64,000 bases of DNA from Dehalococcoidia bacterium (GCA_009692705.1 SHYR01000003.1:5170-69169); one strand, 5' to 3'. Shown: positions 2,221 to 20,675, counted from the stretch's first letter. Translations and numbers: made by a program. Notes: generated by a model from the letters alone, not told the origin.

Positions 2221-3281
2221 CGCGCTGCCCCTGCCGCCGGCTGATCCGGCGGCTGCTCGATGCGCTCCGCGAAGCGCACCAGCAGCTCGCGCGCGCGCCG
2301 CCCGCTGCGCTCGATCTCGTCCACCTCGCGGCGTCCGGCCTCCAGTTCCACCTCGGTCCAGCGCCGAAACTGCTCCAGCACCAGCAGCCGCTGCGCCTCC
2401 AGCGCCTCGGCGAGCGCGCGCAGGCGGTTCTGCGCGGCGCCGGCCTGCTGGTGCAGCATCAGGCGCTCATCGACGCTCGACGTCAGATCGCGGCGCAGTT
2501 GCTCCAGCGTCTCCTCCACCGCGGCGAACCGCTGCTCCACACGCTGGCGCGTCGCGCGCTGCTGCTCCACCAGCTCGCGCAACTCCCCCTCCACCGTGCG
2601 CGCCGCGCGCAACGCCGCCACGGCGTCTTCCAACCGCCGGTGCTCCTCCGCCGCACCGCGCACGCACACAGCGAGGTCCGCGACCGCGGAACGCAGCTCC
2701 GGCAGCTGGGCGAGCGCGCGCGCGCGCTCGTCGCGCGTCGCCCGCGCCGCGTCGCGCTCAGCGCCCCCGGCCTCCTCCAGCGCCTCGACGCGCGCCACAA
2801 GCGACCGCACCTCGAGCCCCTGCGCCCCGAGATCAGTGGCGAGCCGGCGCCGCTGCTCGCCGTCGGAGGCGAGATGCTGCTCGGCCGCCGCCAGCCACGC
2901 GGCGAGCTGTTCCACGCCGCGCTCGGCCGCCGCCAGCTGCTCGTGCTCGGCCTGCGCGCGGCGGTCGCCGACGGCGGCGTGCTGGCGCCGCAGCTCCGCC
3001 TCCGCCTCGCTGCGCTCTGCGAGCGCGCCCAGCTCCTGCCTCAACTCGCGCGCGGCGTCCTGCCCCGCCTCGTGCCGGCGCGTGCGCCCGTCCAGCAGCG
3101 CCAGCGACTCATGCAACCGCACCAGCTCGGCCTGCTGGGCGGCAAGCGCCGCCTGCACGCGGGCCAGCTCGTGCGTCAGTTCATCCACCCGCGCGCGCGC
3201 GCGTTGCAGCTCGTCGCCGATCCAGCCGCCGCGGGCACGCTCCGCCTCGGCCGCTCCGGCGACAGCCGGCTCGCCGGTCAT
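2217..3281 (-). CDS. Ala/Glu/Arg/Leu-rich coiled-coil protein of unknown function, translationally coupled between hom and thrC
   Basis: Start taken at MTGEPAVAG (ATG 3281, 1 nt after the hom stop). The stop overlaps the thrC start (ATGA at 2217-2220). GC3 is high in this frame. There is no recognisable enzymatic motif, only long heptad-like AELxRL repeats. Confidence 0.55.
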   Translation of the reverse strand: MTGEPAVAGAAEAERARGGWIGDELQRARARVDELTHELARVQAALAAQQAELVRLHESLALLDGRTRRHEAGQDAARELRQELGALAERSEAEAELRRQHAAVGDRRAQAEHEQLAAAERGVEQLAAWLAAAEQHLASDGEQRRRLATDLGAQGLEVRSLVARVEALEEAGGAERDAARATRDERARALAQLPELRSAVADLAVCVRGAAEEHRRLEDAVAALRAARTVEGELRELVEQQRATRQRVEQRFAAVEETLEQLRRDLTSSVDERLMLHQQAGAAQNRLRALAEALEAQRLLVLEQFRRWTEVELEAGRREVDEIERSGRRARELLVRFAERIEQPPDQPAAGAAR

Positions 3282-3282
3282 C

Positions 3283-4587
3283 TCAGCCCGCCATCTGCAG
3301 CACGCTGCCGATCTCCACCACCTCGTCGAGCTCGCGGATCGTGGCGAGCGCGGCGTCCAGACGCCCACCGCGCGCCTTGTGCGTGGTGATCACCAGCTCC
3401 GCCGTGCGTGCATCCTCATCCACCTCGAACTGCACCACCGAGGCGATGCTGATGTCGTTGTCGCCCAGCGCCCCCGCGATCTTCGCCAGCACGCCCGCGC
3501 GGTCCGCGACCGTCACCCGCATGTAGTAGCGCGACTCCTGCTCCGACGGCGGCCGCACGACCGCCTTGCGATAACGGATCGCCTCCAGCGGACCACGACC
3601 GGCGACGACATCGCGCGCCACGTCGAGCACGTCGGCCAGCACCGCGCTGGCGGTCGGCTTCGGCCCGGCGCCCGGGCCCTCGAACAACACGCGGCCGACG
3701 AGGTCGCCCTCCACCTGCACCGCATTCAGCACGCCGTCCACCTTGCCCAGCGGCTCCTCGTAGGCGATGAGCGTCGGGCGCACCGAGACATCGAGCGCGC
3801 CGTCGACCAGCCGCCCACTGGCCAGCAGCTTGATCGTGTAGCCAAGCTCGTCGGCGTAGCGGAAGTCGCGCGCGGAGAGCCCGCTGATCCCCTGCCGCGC
3901 GATATCGTCGGGCGACACCGTGACGTGGAACGCGAGCCCGCAGAGGATCGCCAGCTTATACGCGGCGTCGATGCCCTCGACATCGTCCGTCGGATCCGGT
4001 TCCGCGTAGCCCAGGCGCTGCGCCTCGGCCAGTGCCTCCGCGTAGTCGCTGCCCTCGTAGGTCATCGCCGTGAGCACGTAGTTGGTGGTGCCGTTGATGA
4101 TCGCCGTCACCGCCGTGATCTCATTCGCCAGCAGGTCGCGCCCCAGCGGCCGCACGATCGGGATGCCGCCGCCCACCGACGCCTCGTACAGCAGCCGCAC
4201 GCCGTGCTCCGAGGCGAGCTCGAGCAGCTCGGGGCCGCACTTCGCCATCACCTCCTTGTTCGCCGTCACCACGTGGCGGCCGGAGGCCAGCGCGCGCGCG
4301 ATGTATTCGCGGGCGGGGTGCTCTCCACCCATCAGCTCCACGACGATCTGGGTCCGCTCGTCCTCCAGCACGTCCTCGAAGCGGTCGGTGAGCGCGCCCG
4401 CGGGCGCGCCCGCGCGCGGGCGCGCGCGGGCGCGCACCAGCACGCGCCGCAGCTCCAGCGGCCGGCCCACGCGCGCAGCGTAGCGCTCTGCGCCACGCTG
4501 CAGCGCCGCCAGCACGCCCGCGCCGACGTTGCCGGCGCCCAGCAGCGAGACGCCGATCGGCTCCATCGGCTCGCTCGCTTCGCTCAT
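3283..4587 (-). CDS. hom: Homoserine dehydrogenase with C-terminal ACT domain
   Basis: GVSLLGAGNVGAGV (NAD-binding), VVTANKEVMA, LLYEASVGGGIPI, and an ACT-like tail (YYMRVTVADRAGVLAKIAGALGDNDISI). Start taken at MSEASEP, which overlaps the upstream stop. Confidence 0.9.
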   Translation of the reverse strand: MSEASEPMEPIGVSLLGAGNVGAGVLAALQRGAERYAARVGRPLELRRVLVRARARPRAGAPAGALTDRFEDVLEDERTQIVVELMGGEHPAREYIARALASGRHVVTANKEVMAKCGPELLELASEHGVRLLYEASVGGGIPIVRPLGRDLLANEITAVTAIINGTTNYVLTAMTYEGSDYAEALAEAQRLGYAEPDPTDDVEGIDAAYKLAILCGLAFHVTVSPDDIARQGISGLSARDFRYADELGYTIKLLASGRLVDGALDVSVRPTLIAYEEPLGKVDGVLNAVQVEGDLVGRVLFEGPGAGPKPTASAVLADVLDVARDVVAGRGPLEAIRYRKAVVRPPSEQESRYYMRVTVADRAGVLAKIAGALGDNDISIASVVQFEVDEDARTAELVITTHKARGGRLDAALATIRELDEVVEIGSVLQMAG

Positions 4588-5594
4588 CGCACCTCTCCTG
4601 CCGCCGCACGCAAACGGGCGCGCACGCGCTCCTCGATCCATCCTCGCTCGCCGCCCGAGAGGTTGCTGCGCACGCCCGCCTCCCGCCGCGCCCCCGTCAG
4701 CCAGTCCTGGTACTGGCGCTCCGTGATGCGCGCGATCTGCGGCTCGTCCAACGCACGCGCCTGCTCGCGCCCGTCGACGCGGTAGAGACCGTAGAACGCG
4801 CCGCTGCGCACCAGCGCCGAGAAGCCGCCGACCGCCACCGCATCGAGGCTCTTCGCAGCCTCCTCGTCCAGCAGCATGGCGGGCAGCCAGCCCAGGTCGC
4901 CGCCGCTCGCCGCGGTGGCCGGATCCGGGTTGTGCGCCGCCGCAGCCTGCGCGAAGTCGCCGCCCGCGATCAACTGCTCGCGCACCCGCTGCGCCGTCGC
5001 CTCGTCGGAGAAGCGGATGCGCATCAGCTTTAGCTGCGGCGCCTGCGCGGGCACCTCGGCGCGGAAGCGATCGCGCATGCGCTGCGCGAGCACGCGCGCC
5101 CGCATGATGTCGTCGAACTCCGTGCGCGTCAGCCCGGAGATGTCCAGCGCGCGGCCGATCACCGTCTGCAGGTCGGCCCGCGCGAAGGCTGGATTGCCCG
5201 TGTCGGCCAGCCTGAACAACACCTTCACCGACTGCTCGATGTCGTCCGCGGTCGGCGCGGCGACCAGCGCGGGGGCGCGCTCGCGCAGCGCGACCTCCTC
5301 GGCGAGCCGGTCGAGCGCCGTTTCCGCCGGTGAAGGGCTACCGCCCGCGCTCTCGAAGGCCACCATGTAGGTGGCGCGGCTCGCCACCGCCGCGGCATCG
5401 AAATCGCTACCGCCCACGGTCAGCACATGCGCGTGCGGCGCGCGGTACTGGGTGACGTAGACGCCTGCCCCGATGATGGCTGCCACGGCCGCGAGCAGTG
5501 CGCCAGCGACCCACAGCACCTGCCGCTGGCGTCGTTGCGCCGCCCTGAGAGCCGCCCGTCTCCCCGAAGCCGCGGACTGCGTCCTGCCGGCCAC
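4584..5594 (-). CDS. Membrane-anchored parvulin-type peptidyl-prolyl isomerase (PpiC/SurA-like)
   Basis: N-terminal TM helix (VLWVAGALLAAVAAIIGAGVYV). C-terminal PpiC-like block: MRIRFSDEATAQRVREQLIAGGDFAQAAAAHNPDPATAASGGDLGWL. Confidence 0.7.
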   Translation of the reverse strand: MAGRTQSAASGRRAALRAAQRRQRQVLWVAGALLAAVAAIIGAGVYVTQYRAPHAHVLTVGGSDFDAAAVASRATYMVAFESAGGSPSPAETALDRLAEEVALRERAPALVAAPTADDIEQSVKVLFRLADTGNPAFARADLQTVIGRALDISGLTRTEFDDIMRARVLAQRMRDRFRAEVPAQAPQLKLMRIRFSDEATAQRVREQLIAGGDFAQAAAAHNPDPATAASGGDLGWLPAMLLDEEAAKSLDAVAVGGFSALVRSGAFYGLYRVDGREQARALDEPQIARITERQYQDWLTGARREAGVRSNLSGGERGWIEERVRARLRAAAGEVR

Positions 5595-5670
5595 CGCGCG
5601 TTCCCCTTCACCCCGCCAGCGAGGTCGGACCGGGGAGCTGCGGCGGCGCGCGGCCCGGCGGGACCGTCCG

Positions 5671-6087
5671 CTAGTAGCGCCTACTGCTGCCGGCCTGCAC
5701 GCCCGTCACGCGGATGTGCTCAGCGGTGTAGGGGAGCAACGCCATGAAGCGGGCGCGCTTCACGGCATTGCGCACCCAGCGCTGGTGCTTGGCGCAGGTG
5801 CCGACCTTGCGCCGCGGCTCGAGCTTGCCGCGGTCACCGACGTAGTGCCTCAGCCGGCCCACGTCCTTGTAGTCGAGCACGCTGATCTTGTTCACACAGA
5901 ACTCGCAGCCGCGCCGGCGCGCGCTAAAGCGCCGTCCGCCGCCATCGTCGTCGCGACCGCCGCGATCGCCGCGATCGTCACGGTCGCGTCCCTCGCGGCG
6001 CTCGCCCGTGCGCACCAGCGCGCGGCCCGCGCGCTCGCCAGCGGCCTGCTCGCCGCCATTGTCGCGTGTCTCGGGGTCGTTCGTCAT
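5671..6087 (-). CDS. rpsR: 30S ribosomal protein S18 with about 60-aa Arg/Asp/Gly-rich N-terminal extension
   Basis: C-terminal S18 core: CEFCVNKISVLDYKDVGRLRHYVGDRGKLEPRRKVGTCAKHQRWVRNAVKRARFMALLPY. It is part of the rpsF-ssb-rpsR gene order. Confidence 0.85.
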   Translation of the reverse strand: MTNDPETRDNGGEQAAGERAGRALVRTGERREGRDRDDRGDRGGRDDDGGGRRFSARRRGCEFCVNKISVLDYKDVGRLRHYVGDRGKLEPRRKVGTCAKHQRWVRNAVKRARFMALLPYTAEHIRVTGVQAGSSRRY

Positions 6088-6144
6088 TCGCTCGCGCTCA
6101 CTTCTTCTCCGCCACCGCGGCCGGTGCCCGGCTCCCCGGCCTGA

Positions 6145-6558
6145 TCAGAACGGCAGATCGTCTGCCTCGAGATCGCCCTCGCCGTCGGCGCCCACCGGCA
6201 GGCCCGGCGAAGCGGCTGCGCCGCTGCTCTCGCCGCGGCCCCCGAGGAACTGCACGTTGTCCGCGCGCAGCTCCCATGCGTAGTGCTTCTGCCCGTCTTG
6301 CCCGTCCCAGGAACGCGTCACGATGCGTCCCTCGACCAGCACGGCGCGACCCTTCTGCAGGTACTGGGCGCATGTCTCCGCCAGGCGCTCCCACGCCACC
6401 ACGCGGAACCACGTCGTGTCGTCGCGCCGCTCGCCTTCCTGCCCGCCGGCCCGGCGGTTCACCGCTACGTTGAACGTCGTCACGGCCTGGCCGTTGGCCG
6501 TGTACCGCATCTCCGGATCGGCCCCGAGGTTGCCGGCGATGATTACGCGCTGGAACAA
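6145..6558 (-). CDS. ssb: Single-stranded DNA-binding protein
   Basis: OB-fold N-terminus (MFQRVIIAGNLGADPEMRYTANGQAVTTFNVAVN...WFRVVAWERLAE) and an acidic tail ending DDLPF. Confidence 0.9.
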   Translation of the reverse strand: MFQRVIIAGNLGADPEMRYTANGQAVTTFNVAVNRRAGGQEGERRDDTTWFRVVAWERLAETCAQYLQKGRAVLVEGRIVTRSWDGQDGQKHYAWELRADNVQFLGGRGESSGAAASPGLPVGADGEGDLEADDLPF

Positions 6559-6609
6559 TGAAGCCCCCTCCGCTCGCGGGGAGACGCCCGGTCCACGCCC
6601 TGCGGCGGC

Positions 6610-7047
6610 CTACTCCGCCCCCACGGTGGCCGGTGATGGTTCCGCGACCGGCCCGGAGTCTCCGCCGGCATCCGGGCGCGAATCGGCCTCCCGCGGCGCG
6701 CTCACGCGCTCCTCGGACCCCCGGCTCACCGCTCCGGCGTCGCGGTCGTCCTCGCCGAGCGGGATGATGCCACGGATCAGGATGTGCCGCATGATGTCCT
6801 CGGAAATCGTGAGCTGCGACTCCAGCGCGCGCGTCGCCTCCGGCGGCAGGCGCAGCGTCACCAGGATGTAGGTGCCCTCGAGCTCGTGCTGGATCGGGTA
6901 GGCCAGCCGCTGCCGGCCCCAGTCGTCCGCCGTGAGCATCTCGCCGCCGACCTGCCGCACTACGCCGTTCACCCATTCGACCACGCCGGGCACGTCGTCG
7001 GCGCCCTTGCGGGGGTGGACGATGTACAGCAGCTCGTACTCGTTCAA
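6610..7047 (-). CDS. rpsF: 30S ribosomal protein S6 with acidic/Pro-rich C-terminal extension
   Basis: NEYELLYIVHP...WGRQRLAYPIQHELEGTYILV. TTG start with a GGAGG 6 nt upstream. Confidence 0.9.
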   Translation of the reverse strand: MNEYELLYIVHPRKGADDVPGVVEWVNGVVRQVGGEMLTADDWGRQRLAYPIQHELEGTYILVTLRLPPEATRALESQLTISEDIMRHILIRGIIPLGEDDRDAGAVSRGSEERVSAPREADSRPDAGGDSGPVAEPSPATVGAE

Positions 7048-7192
7048 GCGAACCTCCGCCGGTAGCAGCGTCGCGTACCGGGCGCCCCATGCGCCCGACG
7101 CGCCGCACCAGATCAGTGGCCCCCGAGATGAGCGTGCCCGGCGCCGTTCAGCGCCCGGGCCACGGCAGTCGCTGCGGACCCACAGCCGAAGC

Positions 7193-7222
7193 AGTATAGG
7201 GAATGCCCCGCCGGGGGGTCAA
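7193..7222 (-). promoter_or_regulatory. Sigma-70-like promoter for rpsF-ssb-rpsR (-35 TTGACC, 18-nt spacer, -10 TATACT)
   Basis: The minus strand reads TTGACCccccggcggggcattcccTATACT. The -10 maps to plus-strand 7193-7198 and the -35 to 7217-7222. It sits about 145 nt upstream of the rpsF start. Confidence 0.45.
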
Positions 7223-7482
7223 CGAAAAAAATGACCGGGTAGCTGGCAGGACTCCGGTAGCCGGTGCCCGATCTTCGCTTCATGGGCGCACTGGCTCCCC
7301 ACGTCGGGGCAAAAGCCGTGCTCTTGCCCGCTCACGACGAACTCGACCACCGTGTAGTTCCCTTGACCGGCGCATCTGCCGGACGGGTCACTGTGGACGG
7401 TTGTGACGATCGCAGACGATTCGCTGGACGCGCGGTCATGGGCGACCCAACCGCCGCCGAAGGCTGCTAGAACGATAGCCAC
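7219..7482 (-). CDS. Small hypothetical protein (possible N-terminal anchor, 4 Cys) in a lower-GC patch
   Basis: The 87-aa ORF is the only minus-strand ORF between glyA and the rpsF promoter. No family was recognised and the coding status is uncertain. Confidence 0.3.
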   Translation of the reverse strand: MAIVLAAFGGGWVAHDRASSESSAIVTTVHSDPSGRCAGQGNYTVVEFVVSGQEHGFCPDVGSQCAHEAKIGHRLPESCQLPGHFFR

Positions 7483-7575
7483 CGCAGAAACGGTGCGCGC
7501 TAGGCGGCGCTTCAGTTGCTTGTCCCCCCCCCGTGAACGCGCTCGCCGCTATCGTAGCGGCGGACGCCGCCGCGC

Positions 7576-8942: not shown

Positions 8943-10091
8943 TCAGGCGCCGGATGCACGCTCCCGTTCGCCCCACGCCCAGTCGTTGAGCAGCATCAGC
9001 ACGCCCGCCACCAGCGAATGGCCACCGAGCACCACCGGCACGGACGCGGCCGCCGCCTCCTCGGTCAGCGTGCGCAGCCCGCGGTCCGCGATCTCCCCCA
9101 CCAGCCCGAGGTCGGAGGCGAAGCGGTCGGCGCGCGAGGGCGCGAGGCCGAGCTGCACCAGCGCCGGCCGCGTGTCGATGAACGCCGCGTCGCAGAGCTC
9201 CGGCAGCAGCTCGCGGAAGAACCGCGCGGGCCCCACCGCCGCGATCAGCTGCCCGAGCAGCGAGCGCGCCTCGCCCCCGCTGTCGCGGCCGGCCGCGCCC
9301 ATGCCGCGCTCCTCGGCGAGCACGCGCACGCGGCAGGCAGTCTCGCGCTCTAGGTACTGCCAGCTGCGCGAGCTGACGCGGCCCGCCACCAGCACCTCCG
9401 CCTCGCGGTCGGTGAACGCCCTCGCCGCGCTCGCCAGCCGCTCGGTCGGCGGCGCCCAGCCCGCGAGCAGCGCGCCGAGCCGCGGTCCCGCGCTGCCGGC
9501 CAGCGCCAGCGCCGCAAGGTCGACCGGGGAGTCGAGGTTGAGCTGCGTGGCGAGGCTGCGCGGCAGCTCGCTCACGGCCACGCCGAGCTCCTCGTGCAGA
9601 CGGCGCGGCACCGCGTTGTCGGCGCCCGGCGCGGGGTCGAGCCGTGCCAGCAGCGCGGCCGGCGCGAGCGCGAAGAGGTCCGCGGAATAGAAGTTGTTGG
9701 TCACGCACACCGGTTCGCCCGGAGCCCCGCCGGCCACATCGCCCGCGACGCCGTCGGCCAGCGCCTCGAACTGCTCGCGGCCCAGCAGCGGCGCGCTGCC
9801 CCCGCCGAGGTACAGCAGGCGCTCAATGCCGTGGGCGGCGACCGCGCCGGCCAGCCGCCCGCCGTAGCTGAACGTCGTCCCGGGCGGGTCGAGGTCGACG
9901 ATCGTCCCGGCGGGGACGGGTAGCGACGGCACGCGATCGGCCAGCAGCAGCGCGCGCTCGAAGCGGCCGGTGGCGAGCGCCGCCTCGATGCCGTCGAGGG
10001 CGCTGGCCTCCAGCGCCCGGCGCAGCAGCGTCTCGAGCGGCCCGCCGTCCATGCCGCCGAGCATGACGACGAGCGAGAGCGGCGCGCTCAC
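8943..10091 (-). CDS. Hypothetical protein, 382 aa, no family recognised
   Basis: Long GC3-rich minus-strand ORF in line with its neighbours. No motif could be named. Confidence 0.5.
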   Translation of the reverse strand: MSAPLSLVVMLGGMDGGPLETLLRRALEASALDGIEAALATGRFERALLLADRVPSLPVPAGTIVDLDPPGTTFSYGGRLAGAVAAHGIERLLYLGGGSAPLLGREQFEALADGVAGDVAGGAPGEPVCVTNNFYSADLFALAPAALLARLDPAPGADNAVPRRLHEELGVAVSELPRSLATQLNLDSPVDLAALALAGSAGPRLGALLAGWAPPTERLASAARAFTDREAEVLVAGRVSSRSWQYLERETACRVRVLAEERGMGAAGRDSGGEARSLLGQLIAAVGPARFFRELLPELCDAAFIDTRPALVQLGLAPSRADRFASDLGLVGEIADRGLRTLTEEAAAASVPVVLGGHSLVAGVLMLLNDWAWGERERASGA

Positions 10092-11087: not shown

Positions 11088-11213
11088 GGCGCACCCCACC
11101 TGCGATCGCAACGGCCGCCGGATCAGTCTACGCAGCGCGTGCGGGAGCAACCAGCCCGCGCCGCCTCGACGAGCAACAGTTGCACCGCGCAACCCGGCCG
11201 CCGCGTAGCCGCA

Positions 11214-11243
11214 CCACCAGATTCCACCAGATTCCACCAGATT
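11214..11243. repeat. Perfect 10-bp tandem repeat x3 (CCACCAGATT)
   Basis: Plus strand reads ccaccagatt ccaccagatt ccaccagatt. It lies in the spacer between the comF 3' end and the PfkB-kinase start. Confidence 0.9.
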
Positions 11244-11276
11244 CGAGCCAGCCACGCCCCACCGGGCGCCCGCGCG

Positions 11277-11829
11277 CTAGTCCTCGCGCGCCAGCGCCAG
11301 CGCGTACACGCGCTGCGCGCCCGCCCGCCGCAGCGCCCGCGCCAGTGGTCGTGACGTCGTCCACCAGCAGCAGCCGCGCAGGCGGCTCGCCCGCCACCGC
11401 GAACGCGCCGTCGAGGTTGCGCGCCCGCTGCTCGGCGCTGAGCCCGCTCTGCGGCGGCGTCGCCCGCACACGCCACAGCAGCGAGCAGTCGAGTGGCCGC
11501 GCCAGCGCCGCCGCGACCTCGCGCGCGACGATCTCCGACTGGTTGTGGCCGCGCCGCCGCTCGCGCGCCGCGTGCAGCGGCACCGGCACCACCGCCCCCA
11601 GCGTCGCCACCTCCCACTGCGCGGGGACGGCCGCCGCGGCCGCGCGCGCGAGCGGCGGCAGCAGCCGCGTCACGCCCCGGAACTTCGCCTCCAGCACCGC
11701 GCGCCGCGCGGCCCCCGCAAAGCGAAACGGCGTGCACAGCGCCGCGAAGGCCGGCGGCGCATCGAGGCAGCGATCGTGCAGCGCCGCGCCGAACGTGCCG
11801 CAGGCCAGACAGCGCTGCGGCAGCAACAC
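11277..11829 (-). pseudogene. comF: ComF-family phosphoribosyltransferase-like protein, frame-disrupted near its 3' end
   Basis: N-terminal Zn motif (CLACG...LHDRCL) and PRT motif (LLLVDDVTTTG) are in one frame (ORF 11128-11829). The canonical ComF C-terminus ALRRAGAQRVYALALARED-stop is in another frame (ORF 11277-11471). The switch occurs at a G/C run near 11336-11340. Confidence 0.6.
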
Positions 11830-12690: not shown

Positions 12691-13069
12691 TCAGCTCGGA
12701 GCCTCGGCGCTATCGTCGTTGTCCACGCCATCACCGTCGCCAGCGCCAGGACCTGCCTCCGCCCGCAGGCGCGCCGCCAAAGATTCCTCGCGCCGCGCGA
12801 CGACTTCCCGGTTTGCTGGGATCAACCGAATCAAGATCAGACCGAGGACGCTGAACATCGCGCCCAGACTTCCCACGCAGCCACGGGCTGCGTCCCTTGT
12901 TTCGCGCAATATCAGCGCTAGTCCAGATTGAGAAGATCAAGAGCGCAGCGGGGACAGCTATGAAAAAGAAAAGGAGGAAAAAAAGTATACGAAATATCAG
13001 GGCGTGACGGAAGTTGGCACGACCGCATTCTAGCAGAGCGGCTAAGCGCGGCCCATCAGCGCCGCCCAT
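12691..13069 (-). pseudogene. Small two-TM membrane protein (KGRSPW-type) split by a +1 frameshift, in a low-GC islet
   Basis: Frame A reads ...ILFFLLFFFIAVPAALLIFSIWTSADIARNKGRSPWLRG. Frame B continues SLGAMFSVLGLILIRLIPANREVV...-stop. The switch is at plus-strand acttccc, about 12868-12874. Confidence 0.35.
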
Positions 13070-13125: not shown

Positions 13126-14490
13126 CTAACCCGCCGCCGACCCCGCGAGGCGGTAGTCCGGCGCGAGGATCTCGTACACCACCACGGTGTCGAGGTCGGC
13201 GAGGCGCGAGCGGATGCGCGGCTCGATCTGCTTCAGCTCGAGATTGGTGGTGATCACGGTCGGCACCCGCCCGAGGTGGCGGTGGTTGAGCAGCTGATAC
13301 AGCTTCTCCTCCGCCCACGGGCTGGAGTGGTGCGCACCGAGGTCGTCCAGCACCAGCAGCCGCACCTCCAGCAGCCGCTGGAACGCGGTGTCGAAGCGCT
13401 CCGTCGCGGCCGGCGCGAAGGTCGAGCGCAGGCGGTCGAGCAGGTCGGGCACGGTGGCGAAGCAGACGGTGTCGCCCTGCTCCAGCCGCGCCCCCGCGAT
13501 CGCCGCCGCGAGGTGCGTCTTGCCGCAGCCGTTGGCGCCAATGAACACCAGCCAGCCGTCCGGCGCGGTCGCCCAGCTGCGCGCGGCGCGAAAGGCCCCC
13601 TCCAGGTTGTCGCGCTGCTTGCCGCGCAGCCCGCGCCCCGCGGGCTTGAAGGCGTCGAAGCTGAACGCCGCGAGCCGTTCGCGCGTCATGCCGCCGACCT
13701 CGAAGTAGGCGGGCAGCGTGCGCTCCTCCAGCGTCACGACCTGCGCGATCGCGGGGTCGGTGAGCCGCGCGCCGAGCCGCTGGTCGACCTCCGCCGGCGG
13801 GCGCTCACAGGTGAAGACGGTGGGCAGCGCGGCGTGGAAGCGGTGCGAGACCAGCTGCAGGAACTTCTCGCGCGCCCACGGCGTCTCGGCGTAGCTCTCC
13901 AGGTCGTCCAGCACCACCAGCGGCGCGGCGCGCAGCTGCTCCAGCAGCTGATCGTACGGCAGCTCCGCGCCCTCCTGGTAGGACGCGCGCAGATGGTCGA
14001 GCAGGTCCGCCACCGAGAGGAAGAGCGCCGGCTCGCCGCGCTCGATCGCGCGGTTTGCGATCGCCGCCGCCAGGTGCGTCTTGCCGCAGCCGGGCACGCC
14101 CGCGATCACCAGCCAGCCCTGCGGGTGCTCCGCGAAGCGCTCCGCCGCCGCCACCGCGTGCGCGTAGCGCTCGCGCGCCTCGCGCTGCGAGGAGCGCCCC
14201 TCGCGCAGCAGCGTGCCGAAGGTGAAGCGGGCCAGCGCCCCCAGCCGCGAGTAGCGCACGAGGCGGTCGCGGCGCGTGTGCACGTCCTCCTGTCGCACGC
14301 ACTGACACGGCTCGGGCTGGCCGAAGCGCGGGTCCGCGGGATCGCCGCTGACGCGCACGAAGCGCGCGCCGCCGCAGATCGGGCAACCCTCCGGCGTCTC
14401 CGGCGACGTCACGGCCGCGTCAGGGCCAGGAGCGCCGGGCGACCTTTGCAAAGGGGTCGTGGTCGCGAGAATCTCCCCCAGCCGTCGCAT
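13126..14490 (-). CDS. DnaC/DnaI-like helicase loader with N-terminal zinc knuckle and TWO tandem AAA+ modules
   Basis: CPICGG...PCQC comes first. Module 1 has GVPGCGKTHLAAAIA / LVVLDDL. Module 2 has GANGCGKTHLAAAIA / LLVLDDL / VITTN / RIRSRL. An alternative GTG start at 14412 would remove the 71-nt overlap with the upstream gene. Confidence 0.75.
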   Translation of the reverse strand: MRRLGEILATTTPLQRSPGAPGPDAAVTSPETPEGCPICGGARFVRVSGDPADPRFGQPEPCQCVRQEDVHTRRDRLVRYSRLGALARFTFGTLLREGRSSQREARERYAHAVAAAERFAEHPQGWLVIAGVPGCGKTHLAAAIANRAIERGEPALFLSVADLLDHLRASYQEGAELPYDQLLEQLRAAPLVVLDDLESYAETPWAREKFLQLVSHRFHAALPTVFTCERPPAEVDQRLGARLTDPAIAQVVTLEERTLPAYFEVGGMTRERLAAFSFDAFKPAGRGLRGKQRDNLEGAFRAARSWATAPDGWLVFIGANGCGKTHLAAAIAGARLEQGDTVCFATVPDLLDRLRSTFAPAATERFDTAFQRLLEVRLLVLDDLGAHHSSPWAEEKLYQLLNHRHLGRVPTVITTNLELKQIEPRIRSRLADLDTVVVYEILAPDYRLAGSAAG

Positions 14491-15106
14491 CGTCCCTCCC
14501 TTCCCGCTCCCAGCGGCGCAGCACCGCCTCCGCGTAGCGCCAGGAGCGCGCGTTGCGCTGCGCCGCCAGCCGCAGCGCCTCCACGATCCACGCCTCCGGG
14601 TAGCGCCCGGAGGCCTCCGCCAGCGCCTCCGCCACCGCCGGCGTGAGCGTACCGATCTCCTGCTCGTAGACGCGGGCGGGCGGCTCCGCGCTCTCGGCGG
14701 GCGGGGCCGGCCGCGCGCCCACGCCGGGCGCCGCGAGCGCGCCGCTGCGCACGCGCAGCAGGTTGCGGCGGCCGCCCTCGCTGTTCACGAAGTAGAGCGT
14801 GTCGCCATCCTCCAGCGGGCAAGCGAGCAGCGTGCCGCGCGCCGCCGCGCGCGCCAGCGCGCCGTCCAGCGCGTCGACACCCCCGCAGGGCGCGAGCCAG
14901 CGCGCGAGCGGCGGCTCCGCGCGCAGCTGGCTCGCCCGCACCGCGCGCAGCGCGCCGCGCCGCAGGGCGATCGCGTACAGCGCGTAGAGCGTCGCGCGCA
15001 GCTCCGCGGCATCCTCGATCGCCGGCAGCACCTCGACGAAGAGCTGCCCGGGCAGCGTCACCGCCGCGCCCCCGGTGATGAAGCCCGCAAACGGCGCCTC
15101 GGCCAT
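14420..15106 (-). CDS. DnaD-domain replication protein (helicase-loading accessory)
   Basis: C-terminal DnaD-like block: VYEQEIGTLTPAVAEALAEASGRYPEAWIVEALRLAAQRNARSWRYAEAVLRRWEREG. The ATG at 15106 overlaps the dnaB stop (TGATG). Confidence 0.7.
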   Translation of the reverse strand: MAEAPFAGFITGGAAVTLPGQLFVEVLPAIEDAAELRATLYALYAIALRRGALRAVRASQLRAEPPLARWLAPCGGVDALDGALARAAARGTLLACPLEDGDTLYFVNSEGGRRNLLRVRSGALAAPGVGARPAPPAESAEPPARVYEQEIGTLTPAVAEALAEASGRYPEAWIVEALRLAAQRNARSWRYAEAVLRRWEREGRDDATAGGDSRDHDPFAKVARRSWP

Positions 15107-16524
15107 CAGTCGAAGTCCGGGCTGGGCTCGCGCAGCACGAGGTCCTGGAAGGAGGCGGTGCGGTCGCGGAAGCGCACGGTGACGGTGTCGGTGGGGCCGT
15201 TGCGGTGCTTGGCGATGATGATCTGCGCCAGCCCCGACGGGTGCTGCCCGCCCGGCCGGTCCGGGTGCTCGTCCTGCCACTGCTCGGCGGTCTTGTAGAC
15301 GTCCTCGCGGTAGATGAACATCACCACGTCGGAGTCCTGCTCGATGGAGCCCGACTCGCGCAGATCCGAGAGCATGGGGATGTGCGGCGTGCGCGACTCC
15401 ACCGCGCGCGAGAGCTGGGCCGCCGCGATCACCGGCACATGCAGCTCGCGCGCCAGCTCCTTGAGCGAACGCGTGATGCCGCTGACCTCGTTGGCGCGGG
15501 TGTCAGCGCGGCCCGCGCCGTGCACCAGCTGCAGGTAGTCAACGACCACCAGATCCAGCCCGCGGTCCGCCTGCAGGCGGCGGCACTTGGCGCGGATCTC
15601 CGGCACCGTCAGCACCGCCGAGTCATCGATGTAGAGCGCGCTCTCGCTCAGCACGCCGATGGCGTGCATGATCCGCCGCTCCTCGTCGTCGCGGTGCTGC
15701 CCGAGCCGCAGCCGCGTCGCCGGCACATCTGCCTCCGCCGACAGCAGGCGCATCGCGAGCTGGTCGCCGCTCATCTCCAGCGAGAAGAAGGCGACCGCGG
15801 CGCGCTGCCCGATGGCGGCGTTGCGCGCGAAGTTCAACAGCAGCGCGGTCTTGCCCACGCCGGTGCGCGCCGCCAGCACCACGAGGTCGCCGCGCTTGAA
15901 GCCCCCGAGCACGGTGTCGAGGTCCATAAAGCCGCTACGCACGCTCTGCTCGAGGCTGCCGGGCGCCTCGCCGGGGTCCTCCAGGAACTGCTCCAGCAGC
16001 TGGCGCAGGCTCTTGAACTCGCCCGCGCGCTCGCTGGAGCGCACGCCCAGCAGCAGCTGCTCCGCCTCCGCCAGCACCCGGGCGGCGTCCGGCCCGCCCT
16101 GGTAGGCGGTCTGGGCGATGCGGCCCGCGACCTCGATCAGGCGGCGGTAGAGCGCGTCCCGCGCCACGATGCGCGCGTGCGCCTCCACGCCGACGGCGGT
16201 GAAGTACTTGCCCGCGATCTCGACCAGGTAGGCCTCGCCGCCGGCGGCGTCGAGGCGGCCCTGACGCTCCAGCTCGTGCGCCAGCGTGGGCAAGGTGACC
16301 GCGTCGCCGCGGTCGGCGAGCGCGATCGCCGCCTCGTAGCACCAGCCGTTCTGCTCGCGGAAGAAGTCGGAGACCTCGAGTATGGGCAGGACGCGCGGGT
16401 AGGCGTCCTCGTCCAGCAGCAGGGCGGCGATCACCGCCTCCTCAGCGCCGACGTCGTGCGGCGGCAGCCCGCCCTGGGGACGGCTCTGCGGCCGCAGCTG
16501 CGCCGGGCGGCCCTCGATCACCAC
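15106..16524 (-). CDS. dnaB: Replicative DNA helicase
   Basis: 472 aa. PPHDVGAEEAVIAALL, Walker A ARTGVGKTALLLN, and VVVDYLQLV, SRAVESR, LSDLRESGSIEQDSDVVMFIYRED. Confidence 0.95.
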   Translation of the reverse strand: MVIEGRPAQLRPQSRPQGGLPPHDVGAEEAVIAALLLDEDAYPRVLPILEVSDFFREQNGWCYEAAIALADRGDAVTLPTLAHELERQGRLDAAGGEAYLVEIAGKYFTAVGVEAHARIVARDALYRRLIEVAGRIAQTAYQGGPDAARVLAEAEQLLLGVRSSERAGEFKSLRQLLEQFLEDPGEAPGSLEQSVRSGFMDLDTVLGGFKRGDLVVLAARTGVGKTALLLNFARNAAIGQRAAVAFFSLEMSGDQLAMRLLSAEADVPATRLRLGQHRDDEERRIMHAIGVLSESALYIDDSAVLTVPEIRAKCRRLQADRGLDLVVVDYLQLVHGAGRADTRANEVSGITRSLKELARELHVPVIAAAQLSRAVESRTPHIPMLSDLRESGSIEQDSDVVMFIYREDVYKTAEQWQDEHPDRPGGQHPSGLAQIIIAKHRNGPTDTVTVRFRDRTASFQDLVLREPSPDFD

Positions 16525-16611: not shown

Positions 16612-17277
16612 CTAGGGGGCCGGCTCGTCCTCCCCCGCAGCGCCGCGAGTGCGCGCGGAACCGGGGGCGGAGGCGGGCTCGGTGGATGTGTCGTTGCCCG
16701 GCTCCGACGCGCCAGCGGCGCTGGCGTCGCCGGTGCTGCCCACCGCTGTGACCGCGGGCGCGGCCGCCGGCTCCGCCTCGAGAGGCGGGGCCAACAGGCG
16801 TTGCACGGCCGTCTCGACGCCTTCCGGCGCCTCGACGTCCACCACGGCCACCTGCACACTCGCCGTCACATTACGCGACAGGCGGATGGGCACGGTGTAC
16901 AGCCCGACGCTCCGAATCACCTCGGGCAGCAGGATGCGACGCCGGTCCAGTTCCTCGCCAAGAATCTCCCCAGCCTTCTCGGCGATGTCACCGTTGGTGA
17001 CGGAACCGTACAGGCGCCCCTGCTCGCCCACCCTGACGGCCACAACGAGCGTCCGGTCCGCGAGCTTGCCGACGAGCTCGCGAGCCTGCTCGTCCTGGAC
17101 CCGCTGCCGCTCCGCCTCGATCGCGGCGAGCGTTTCGGCCCGCCTGAGGACGTGCGGCGTTGCCGGCGCGGCGAGGCCGCGCGGCAAGAGGAAGTTGCGG
17201 GCGTACCCATTGGCGACGTCTTTGACATCGCCCATGGCGCCCGATCCCTCAACGGACTCCAGGAACACGACCTTCAC
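16612..17277 (-). CDS. rplI: 50S ribosomal protein L9 with about 75-aa Ala/Pro/Glu-rich C-terminal extension
   Basis: VKVVFLESVEGSGAMGDVKDVANGYARNFLLPRGLA. GTG start at 17277 preceded by GAGGG. Confidence 0.85.
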   Translation of the reverse strand: MKVVFLESVEGSGAMGDVKDVANGYARNFLLPRGLAAPATPHVLRRAETLAAIEAERQRVQDEQARELVGKLADRTLVVAVRVGEQGRLYGSVTNGDIAEKAGEILGEELDRRRILLPEVIRSVGLYTVPIRLSRNVTASVQVAVVDVEAPEGVETAVQRLLAPPLEAEPAAAPAVTAVGSTGDASAAGASEPGNDTSTEPASAPGSARTRGAAGEDEPAP

Positions 17278-20502: not shown

Positions 20503-20675
20503 GGAGCCCTCACCCTCACCCCTGCCCCTCTCCCATCGGGGAGAGGGTGGCGAGCCGGAGGCGAGCCGGGGTGAGGGCCTCAGCGTAGCAGCGGCGCTCG
20601 CTTGCCTCACCCCCACCCCTCTCCCCCCGGGGGAGAGGGGTGGGGGTGAGGCAAGCGAGCCGGGTGAGGGTCCTA
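20503..20675. repeat. Two adjacent REP-like GC-rich palindromic elements (core CCCCTCTCCCC/GGGGAGAGGGG)
   Basis: A perfect inverted repeat with 30-nt arms spans 20596-20660 (gctcgcttgcctcacccccacccctctccc...gggagaggggtgggggtgaggcaagcgagc). An imperfect copy sits at about 20503-20580. The direct repeat GCGAGCCGGG(G)TGAGGG(C/T)CCT flanks both. Confidence 0.85.

Follow-up and report, generated by a model that had tools for sequence, protein, structure and literature searches.

A tandem-AAA+ helicase loader of the DnaC/DnaI family encoded in the dnaB operon of Dehalococcoidia and other Chloroflexota

Comparison with described helicase loaders

Characterised DnaC-type loaders bind the replicative helicase DnaB through an N-terminal domain, and ATP-dependent contacts between their AAA+ domains form a cracked spiral that admits single-stranded DNA (ssDNA); ATP is hydrolysed upon ssDNA binding. 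For DnaC, DnaI, lambda P and DciA alike, debate continues over the numbers of loader subunits and of ATP-hydrolysis events needed to open and close the helicase ring. Here we describe a loader gene of a Dehalococcoidia bacterium, found in a 64,000-nucleotide stretch of genome assembly GCA_009692705.1 (SHYR01000003.1:5170-69169), referred to as the window. The gene is the last of an rplI-dnaB-dnaD-loader operon, and its product is confirmed as one covalent tandem of two AAA+ modules of the DnaC/DnaI type, called M1 and M2 in the order in which they are encoded.

DnaI of Bacillus and Geobacillus resembles the window loader in that a zinc-binding region at the N terminus precedes a DnaC-type AAA+ module, and in having a partner protein with a DnaD domain (DDBH2). 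DnaI, however, has one AAA+ module per chain whereas the window loader has two, and the zinc knuckle of the latter has no detectable similarity to DnaI_N. On the Bacillus helicase DnaI is arranged as three asymmetric dimers, as seen in a 7.5 Å structure (PMC3791466), which is the arrangement that a tandem would hard-wire. Unlike in the Firmicutes system, dnaB, dnaD and the loader gene all lie in one operon here, and no second co-loader (the Bacillus subtilis DnaB protein) was seen in the window operon. The Firmicutes-style combination of DnaD-domain protein and DnaI-like loader thus extends beyond the low-GC Gram-positive bacteria.

DnaC of Escherichia coli and Aquifex shares with the window loader the initiator-clade AAA+ fold, the Walker A and B motifs, the R-x-x-x-R pair of arginines and the ssDNA-binding positions; M2 further shares the sensor I asparagine and a sensor II arginine in a D-x-Y-R-like context. 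DnaC differs in having a single module, a helical, zinc-free N-terminal domain and a 6:6 complex with the helicase, and its Walker B motif reads DE where that of the window loader reads DD. The best Pfam family match of the window loader is to the IS21 helper IstB, a close AAA+ paralogue, but neither IstA nor any mobile-element context accompanies the loader. IstB, which reportedly acts in dimers, dimerises non-covalently, whereas the two modules here are covalently joined. Two modules per chain, one of them often hydrolytically weak and serving mostly to bind nucleotide and stabilise the oligomer, are also found in the type II AAA+ proteins (p97/Cdc48, NSF, ClpB and Pex1/Pex6). This is an analogy of logic and not of descent: these proteins belong to another AAA+ clade and form closed, stacked double rings for processive unfolding, whereas the loaders are switch-like open spirals. 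The natural comparator for the tandem is the loader of other Chloroflexota, which has a single AAA+ module.

In the passages of Brezellec et al. 2016 (PMC5109545) that concern the Chloroflexi, one dna[CI] domestication is reported and neither a duplication nor DnaD is mentioned; among the entries in its supplement, cultured Chloroflexi have one dna[CI] and no dciA, and Herpetosiphon has three dna[CI]. Full-text literature searches found no description of a tandem or two-domain architecture for DnaC, DnaI, IstB or a Chloroflexota loader, in agreement with the first-pass annotation of the window, made from its sequence, which knew of no characterised example. What appears to be new is a loader of the DnaC/DnaI family in which AAA+ modules are concatenated and, as judged from their motifs, functionally differentiated; the kind of family is itself known. 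This family is the only known loader type in the Chloroflexota, a large and ecologically important phylum (SAR202, Dehalococcoidia, Anaerolineae). Covalently ordered modules fix the order of subunits and would halve the number of helicase-binding domains, and they permit site-specific mutagenesis of alternate positions of the spiral, which is impossible with a homo-oligomeric DnaC. Sister lineages encode loaders of one, two, three or four modules in this operon and differ in which module is the complete one, and so provide built-in evolutionary controls.

Two AAA+ modules in a single polypeptide

The operon and the parts of the loader are as follows, all on the minus strand; coordinates are those of the window.

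13126..14490 (-), tandem-AAA+ helicase loader gene; 454 amino acid residues, one continuous open reading frame (ORF), ATG at 14490
14403..14490 (-), N-terminal tail of the loader, residues 1-29; mostly overlaps the 3' end of dnaD; low confidence
14299..14385 (-), zinc-knuckle N-terminal domain of the loader; four conserved cysteines (C36, C39 ... C62, C64)
13696..14241 (-), AAA+ module 1 (M1), residues 84-265; delimited by motifs and predicted secondary structure
13684..13695 (-), inter-module junction GGMT, residues 266-269; delimited by conservation
13135..13683 (-), AAA+ module 2 (M2), residues 270-452; full catalytic set
14420..15106 (-), gene for a DnaD-domain protein (DDBH2, PF07261); 228 residues, translationally coupled to dnaB
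15106..16524 (-), dnaB, replicative helicase; 472 residues, TIGR00665 463 bits, DnaB_C E = 1.3e-95
16612..17277 (-), rplI, ribosomal protein L9; matches to L9_N and L9_C, likely GTG start at 17277

The first-pass annotation had read the loader as a CPICGG...CQC knuckle followed by two loader modules, and both are present in the translated ORF. Each module opens, as it had described, with F-(T/S)-F...GWLV (RFTFG in M1 and AFSFD in M2, with GWLV), and the Walker A (GVPGCGKTHLAAAIA / GANGCGKTHLAAAIA) and Walker B (LVVLDDL / LLVLDDL) motifs that it had listed were all found. It had also considered that a missed stop or a frameshift near 13690-13720 might separate two adjacent genes; there is none, and this stretch encodes residues about 257-267, ERTLPAYFEVGG.

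Domain searches, which the same annotation had proposed as a check, revealed two matching stretches in the loader for each of the Pfam families IstB_IS21 (E = 2.5e-35), Bac_DnaA and AAA. The protein exceeds the cutoff of the NCBIfam model PRK08116 (NF005992; 204.9 against 189, a score summed over the two stretches), and it falls below those of the DnaC (NF005931; 118.6 against 357) and DnaI (NF006505; 101.4 against 228) equivalogs. The two modules align with each other without gaps by BLASTP (M1 residues 86-245 with M2 residues 272-431), with 41% identity over 160 residues (E = 3e-35).

An AlphaFold2 model of the loader, built from 48 homologues, has a mean predicted local distance difference test score (pLDDT) of 90.7 and a predicted template modelling (TM) score of 0.77, and in it strands and helices follow one another in the same order in the two halves. 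In this predicted structure both modules carry an initiator-type insert of two helices between Walker A and Walker B, located between strand 2 and strand 3 (helices 160-169 and 179-188 in M1, 347-356 and 366-375 in M2). Sequence matches of the loader in the PDB are 6qel, 3ecc, 2w58 and 4m4w. Foldseek comparison of the single modules with solved structures returned Aquifex DnaC (3ecc, TM 0.75) and Geobacillus DnaI (2w58, TM 0.75), as well as IstB. The whole chain, in contrast, matched only two-ring AAA+ proteins (p97, Cdc48 and Pex1/6), with a root-mean-square deviation (rmsd) of 11-20 Å and TM values of at most 0.43, indicating that the geometry between the modules differs from that of p97, Cdc48 and Pex1/6; a p97-like stacking of the modules was rejected on the basis of this poor superposition. 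In its clade signature, too, the protein is DnaC/DnaA-like. No tandem DnaC-type protein was found among solved structures in either the PDB sequence or the Foldseek comparison.

Motifs of the two modules

The functional residues of E. coli DnaC (Puri et al. 2021, PMC8213410) were mapped onto the loader through alignments, with the following result.

Walker A (E. coli DnaC K112): K137 in M1, K324 in M2
Walker B (E. coli DnaC D169/E170): D195/D196 in M1, D382/D383 in M2
ssDNA-binding positions (E. coli DnaC K143, F146, S177, Y179): R168, Y171, T203, W205 in M1; R355, F358, S390, W392 in M2
Sensor I (E. coli DnaC N203): E229 in M1, N416 in M2
Arg-coupler (E. coli DnaC R216): R238 in M1, R425 in M2
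Arg-finger (E. coli DnaC R220): R242 in M1, R429 in M2
Sensor II (E. coli DnaC R237): absent from M1 (A261); R447 in M2, within PDYR

An ungapped HMMER alignment sets R242 against E. coli R216. The distance from finger to sensor II is 18 residues in M2 (R429-R447) and 17 in E. coli DnaC (R220-R237), with sensor II in a D-x-Y-R context in both; this spacing, together with the R-x-x-x-R pattern, identifies R242 and R429 as the equivalents of the finger. M2 thus has the VITTN and RIRSRL motifs reported in the first-pass annotation, which hold the sensor I asparagine (N416) and both arginines (R425 and R429). For M1 that annotation had inferred catalytic degeneracy from VFTCER and RLGARL at the corresponding positions. 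The former does lack the sensor I asparagine, having E229 instead, but RLGARL retains both arginines of the R-x-x-x-R pair.

A broad degeneracy of M1 is not borne out, as its Walker A, Walker B, finger and ssDNA-binding positions are kept and it is conserved as well as M2. GxGKTH, DD and both arginines occur in about 100% of 120 close homologues in both modules. More widely, the Walker A lysine and Walker B aspartate are kept in 99-100% of both modules, the Arg-finger in 97-98% of 225 tandem proteins (and in 119/119 of a further set from the Anaerolineae and Caldilineae, described below) and the Arg-coupler in 78-90% of modules, about 90% among first modules; the four ssDNA-binding positions are conserved in both modules across the 225 proteins, in at least about 88% when conservative substitutions are counted. 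Mean pairwise identity is 67.4% for M1 and 67.1% for M2, a pattern of sequence conservation that points to equal purifying selection on both modules. Judged by these alignments, the shortfall of M1 is the sensor I asparagine and the sensor II arginine.

The junction GGMT between the modules is itself conserved (G266 in 100% and M268 in 97%). An internal start at Met268, which would give a free M2, was considered and rejected: a motif like a Shine-Dalgarno sequence lies upstream of it in 2/47 loci, against a background of 16%.

A conserved asymmetry whose polarity differs between classes

Among the 225 tandem proteins, which are not phylogenetically independent, sensor II is found in M2 only in 169, in M1 only in 39, in both modules in 4 and in neither in 13; it is therefore present in exactly one module in 208/225 (92%). 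The sensor I asparagine accompanies it, occurring in 155 of the 216 modules that bear sensor II (72%) and in 23 of the 234 that lack it (10%). In the separate set of 119 proteins from the Anaerolineae and Caldilineae, whose counts are likewise not phylogenetically independent, the first module is complete in 117/119 and the second lacks sensor II in 117/119, and none of the 238 modules has lost Walker A, Walker B or the finger. In the window loader and its Dehalococcoidia-type relatives it is the second module that is complete, in the Anaerolineae the first. What the sequences suggest as the conserved design is one complete and one sensor-deficient site per chain, with the class of bacteria setting which module is which. 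The proposal of an active/inactive pseudo-dimer, made for the window protein in the first-pass annotation, accordingly finds much support, as the modules are systematically unequal (208/225; 117/119), except that RLGARL does not mark M1 as degenerate.

Distribution and genomic context of the tandem loader

A survey of homologues, also suggested at the outset, found the tandem conserved in hundreds of full-length proteins. An initial homology search yielded at least 120 full-length relatives (404-485 residues, 59-78% identity), those that are named being from Dehalococcoidia or Chloroflexota, and a second, seeded from the Anaerolineales, returned 119 further two-module proteins from the Anaerolineae and Caldilineae. 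A HMMER search through all of 1.84 billion cluster representatives gave 569 matches below 1e-30, of which the top 150 are mostly 400-490 residues long. A genome scan with one genome per species revealed at least 477 pattern-matched stretches, and the counts of loci given here are for the best 80. Each of these loci encodes both modules in tandem, with 41-71% identity (contig ends cut into a few of them), and nearly all come from metagenome-assembled genomes (MAGs) of Dehalococcoidia or other Chloroflexota. More divergent members were found in SAR202 and other Chloroflexota. The only named member outside the phylum is in a MAG labelled Acidimicrobiia (locus L011); this assignment may be an error of binning or labelling. 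Neither homology search named a cultured species with a tandem loader, the names being those of MAGs. The relatives are labelled in the databases as 'ATP-binding protein' or 'DNA replication protein DnaC'.

The gene order rplI-dnaB-(DnaD-domain gene)-loader is present in 70/80 loci, the remaining ones being contigs that end early. The helicase gene lies upstream of the loader in 74/80 loci, as well as at every individually inspected locus (L081-L087), and the DnaD-domain gene lies directly upstream, usually overlapping the loader start, in 79/80. The same rplI-dnaB-dnaD-loader block is found on chromosomes assembled from long reads. The occurrence of a single ORF in hundreds of independent assemblies, long-read chromosomes included, shows that the fusion is not an artefact.

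Neither 50,697 phage records nor the 80 best IMG/VR loci contained a fused tandem, and the idea that the tandem came from a phage or another virus was rejected on this basis. One viral contig of 103 kb in IMG/VR (L088) has two adjacent, separate DnaC-like genes of one module each, at 3425-4510 (361 residues) and 4535-5098 (187 residues), which may correspond to the tandem in unfused form.

Relatives with one, three or four modules

Other Chloroflexota encode a one-module, PRK08116-type loader of 278-281 residues (e.g. P0298 and P0310) in the same slot of the operon and with the same overlap with dnaD. These proteins have the same zinc-knuckle N-terminal domain and are 55-62% identical to individual modules of the tandem proteins. 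Their position indicates that the tandem gene is the positional orthologue of an ordinary loader. The tandem appears to have arisen by internal duplication of the AAA+ module within the loader gene, and the one-module Chloroflexota loaders are likely to represent the ancestral state. Four further one-module loaders with the same zinc knuckle (P0232, P0236, P0267 and P0270; 516-552 residues) carry a low-complexity N-terminal extension of about 300 residues, rich in Ala, Pro and Gln, before the knuckle.

Longer forms were also found. The four-module loader P0122 (827 residues; 5001-7484 of locus L085) lies in a dnaB-dnaD-loader operon and is present on two contigs; its modules are 40-65% identical to each other, three of them being complete and the last one sensor-deficient. 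The dnaB gene beside it (2433-4259) encodes a protein of 608 residues with an intein (PF14890, Intein_splicing). In a three-module relative, P0121 (792 residues), the first two modules are 83% identical.

In a neighbour-joining tree of the modules, the clades are purely of first or purely of second modules and their pairing is consistent, a pattern that speaks against duplications having recurred recently. The additional copies in the three- and four-module proteins group within clades of first modules. In a bootstrapped tree, clades within a class are supported (D1 50/50, D2 48/50) and groupings across classes are unsupported, so a single duplication followed by reciprocal degeneration is inseparable from independent duplications or from a swap of module order.

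Proposed mechanism and alternatives

We consider it rather probable that the window protein is a resident chromosomal loader of the DnaC/DnaI family, similar to PRK08116, and that it forms a hard-wired asymmetric dimer with three chains per DnaB hexamer. The polypeptide would act as a covalent asymmetric dimer, three copies of which would supply the six AAA+ modules of a DnaC-like spiral on one DnaB hexamer, and the helicase would be contacted through three N-terminal domains only. ATP at the sensor-less M1 would chiefly hold the assembly together, the arginine finger of M1 would be given to a neighbouring site, and ssDNA-triggered hydrolysis at the three complete M2 sites would free the loader. 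As in the Firmicutes, recruitment of the complex to an origin bound by DnaA is probably due to the DnaD-domain protein encoded immediately upstream. That the sensor-deficient module has kept its P-loop and finger so strictly suggests that it binds nucleotide and acts in trans on the site of its neighbour.

A tentative generalisation, possible though short of likely, is that concatenated modules, one to four per chain, build the spiral throughout the family, so that in the tandem case each DnaB hexamer would be served by three chains with only three helicase-binding domains between them, and the hydrolytic sites, three in number, would alternate with as many that bind nucleotide without hydrolysing it. 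If so, the flip in polarity (the complete site lies by the N-terminal domain in the Anaerolineae and far from it in the Dehalococcoidia type) would mean that alternation is needed and not a fixed place with respect to the helicase. Subunit concatenation would then have its first case in the initiator/loader clade of AAA+ proteins, and the family would offer a natural, fixed subunit order for dissecting the ATP switch.

Several points weigh against the hard-wired asymmetric dimer. Some AAA+ proteins, DnaA for example, have an aspartate at the sensor I position; by analogy E229 could act in the same manner, and M1 may retain some activity. Even the one-module orthologues of the operon vary at sensor I, where Cys or Tyr is found, and loss of sensor I alone is therefore no proof of inactivity; some tandem proteins (e.g. 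P0128) lack the sensor I asparagine in both modules. The four-module relative does not divide evenly into a ring of six modules, and the trimer-of-dimers precedent of DnaI is of only 7.5 Å resolution. Furthermore, an E. coli sensor II mutant loads DnaB at the wild-type level (PMC8213410), so loading need not be affected where sensor II is missing.

The labile sensor I, the proteins similar to P0128 and the E. coli sensor II mutant would also fit a model in which both modules are active ATPases, the sensor changes are tolerated drift and the fusion raises the local concentration or the cooperativity of oligomerisation. Consistent with this, the Walker A, Walker B and finger residues are kept at about 97-100% in both modules and the coupler at 78-90%. 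We nevertheless regard it as rather unlikely, as sensor II is nearly mutually exclusive between the modules (208/225; 117/119) and is coupled to the sensor I asparagine (72% against 10%), a non-random pattern that drift would not leave, and as the E. coli DnaC substitutions N203A and R237D each abolish ATPase activity (PMC8213410). Less probable still is an assembly of six tandem loaders per DnaB hexamer, with twelve modules in two tiers like those of p97 or ClpB, one structural and one catalytic. The characterised DnaC-DnaB and DnaI-helicase complexes are indeed 6:6 (PMC8213410, PMC3791466), the whole-chain Foldseek matches are two-ring proteins, and the four-module relative fits stacked tiers more easily than a ring of six modules. 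The poor fit of those matches, however, shows that the predicted arrangement is not D1-D2 stacking, the ssDNA-binding positions and the initiator-type insert in both modules speak for one open spiral that encloses a single strand, and the polarity flip between classes is awkward for a tier that is fixed relative to the helicase.

The sensor-deficient module might instead lie outside the spiral, as an adaptor docking on the end of an ATP-DnaA filament or on the DnaD-domain protein. DnaC-type modules are paralogues of DnaA, as reflected in the Bac_DnaA matches to both modules, and cross-talk between the AAA+ domains of DnaC and DnaA has been proposed for Aquifex; the conserved arginine finger of the sensor-deficient module could enter the ATP site of a partner, and the DnaD-domain gene is always adjacent. 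Such an adaptor would not need the ssDNA-binding positions, which this module keeps with conservative substitutions, and we judge this role very improbable. That the gene is an artefact or non-replicative, whether two adjacent genes fused by a sequencing or assembly error, a pseudogene copy in decay or a transposition helper of the IS21 IstB type, is scarcely credible: IstB_IS21 is the top Pfam match and viral contig L088 does carry two adjacent, separate loader-like genes, but the single ORF is conserved across independent assemblies and long-read chromosomes, and M1 is conserved as much as M2. An identity as IS21 IstB was rejected in its own right, with an equivalog score of 148.1 against a cutoff of 200, no IstA or transposase nearby and a fixed housekeeping operon with dnaB.

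The N-terminal domain and the DnaD-domain protein

The four cysteines of the loader N-terminal domain (C36, C39, C62 and C64) are invariant or at least 90% conserved across homologues. A profile of the domain searched against Pfam and the PDB matched only generic CxxCxGxG knuckles (E = 0.015 or weaker). Identity with DnaI_N was rejected, as these searches detected no sequence similarity to it, nor to the N-terminal domain of E. coli DnaC. From its sequence and position the zinc knuckle is a candidate helicase-binding domain. The C-terminal DDBH2 domain of the DnaD-domain protein exceeds the cutoffs of PF07261 (37 bits against 22) and TIGR01446 (33.9 against 24.95), and the N-terminal half had no family match in Pfam or NCBIfam scans.

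Operon structure and neighbouring genes

The window has a G+C content of about 73%. The first gene of the conserved block is rplI. In agreement with the first-pass annotation, dnaB, the DnaD-domain gene and the 454-residue loader gene overlap serially; the TGATG shared by the dnaB stop and the dnaD start is at 15104-15108. The loader ATG (14490) sits 71 nucleotides inside dnaD and is preceded by GGGAGGG-ACG, a plausible Shine-Dalgarno sequence; other possible starts are a TTG at codon 14 and a GTG at codon 27 (14412). Residues 1-29 have a mean pairwise identity of 0.14, and pLDDT is below 50 at residues 10-30 of the AlphaFold2 model; the exact start is uncertain because this tail is unconserved and modelled with low confidence. 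At orthologous loci, gene callers also place the loader start 11-92 nucleotides inside dnaD. The operon is surrounded in the window by housekeeping genes (purQ, purL, a GNAT gene, moaD/moaE, pfkB and glyA), and no transposase, IstA or phage genes were found among them.

Other features of the window

A perfect 32-nucleotide inverted repeat with a 1-nucleotide loop (GCTCGCTTGCCTCACCCCCACCCCTCTCCCCC / complement) lies at 20596-20660, upstream of where purL probably starts. There are 5 copies of the core motif CCTCACCCCNNCCCCTCTCC, all within 20508-20651 (0.16 expected by chance), and the whole cluster, 20508-20660, looks like a palindromic element of the repetitive extragenic palindrome (REP) or miniature inverted-repeat transposable element (MITE) kind. 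Rfam models of microRNA precursors match the repeat at 20596-20660 on both strands below their gathering scores, which indicates that only a generic long hairpin was detected.

The tract at 12965-13050, rich in A+T and in pyrimidines (tatttcgtatacttttttcctccttttctttttcat on the minus strand), stands out against the 73% G+C of the window. It lies within the 480 nucleotides that separate the end of the loader gene from the convergent moaD/moaE, with a promoter-like site, TTAGCC-N17-TAGAAT, before it. Downstream of the loader, 12691-12858 (-) is a possible small gene (MFSVLGLILIRLIPANREVV..., 55 residues from the ATG) whose product would have one hydrophobic helix and an acidic tail; it has no Pfam match, and locus L082 has a 55-residue gene at a similar position. 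Two ORFs, each overlapped by another ORF, have no Pfam match at E = 1e-3. The one at 8943-10091 (-) has a gene-like codon bias, with a G+C content at third codon positions (GC3) of 0.95. The other, at 11128-11829 (-), failed the filter on GC3/GC2 (GC2 being the value at second positions) and may not be a gene; at its position locus L082 has a weakly phosphoribosyltransferase-like (ComF-like) gene.

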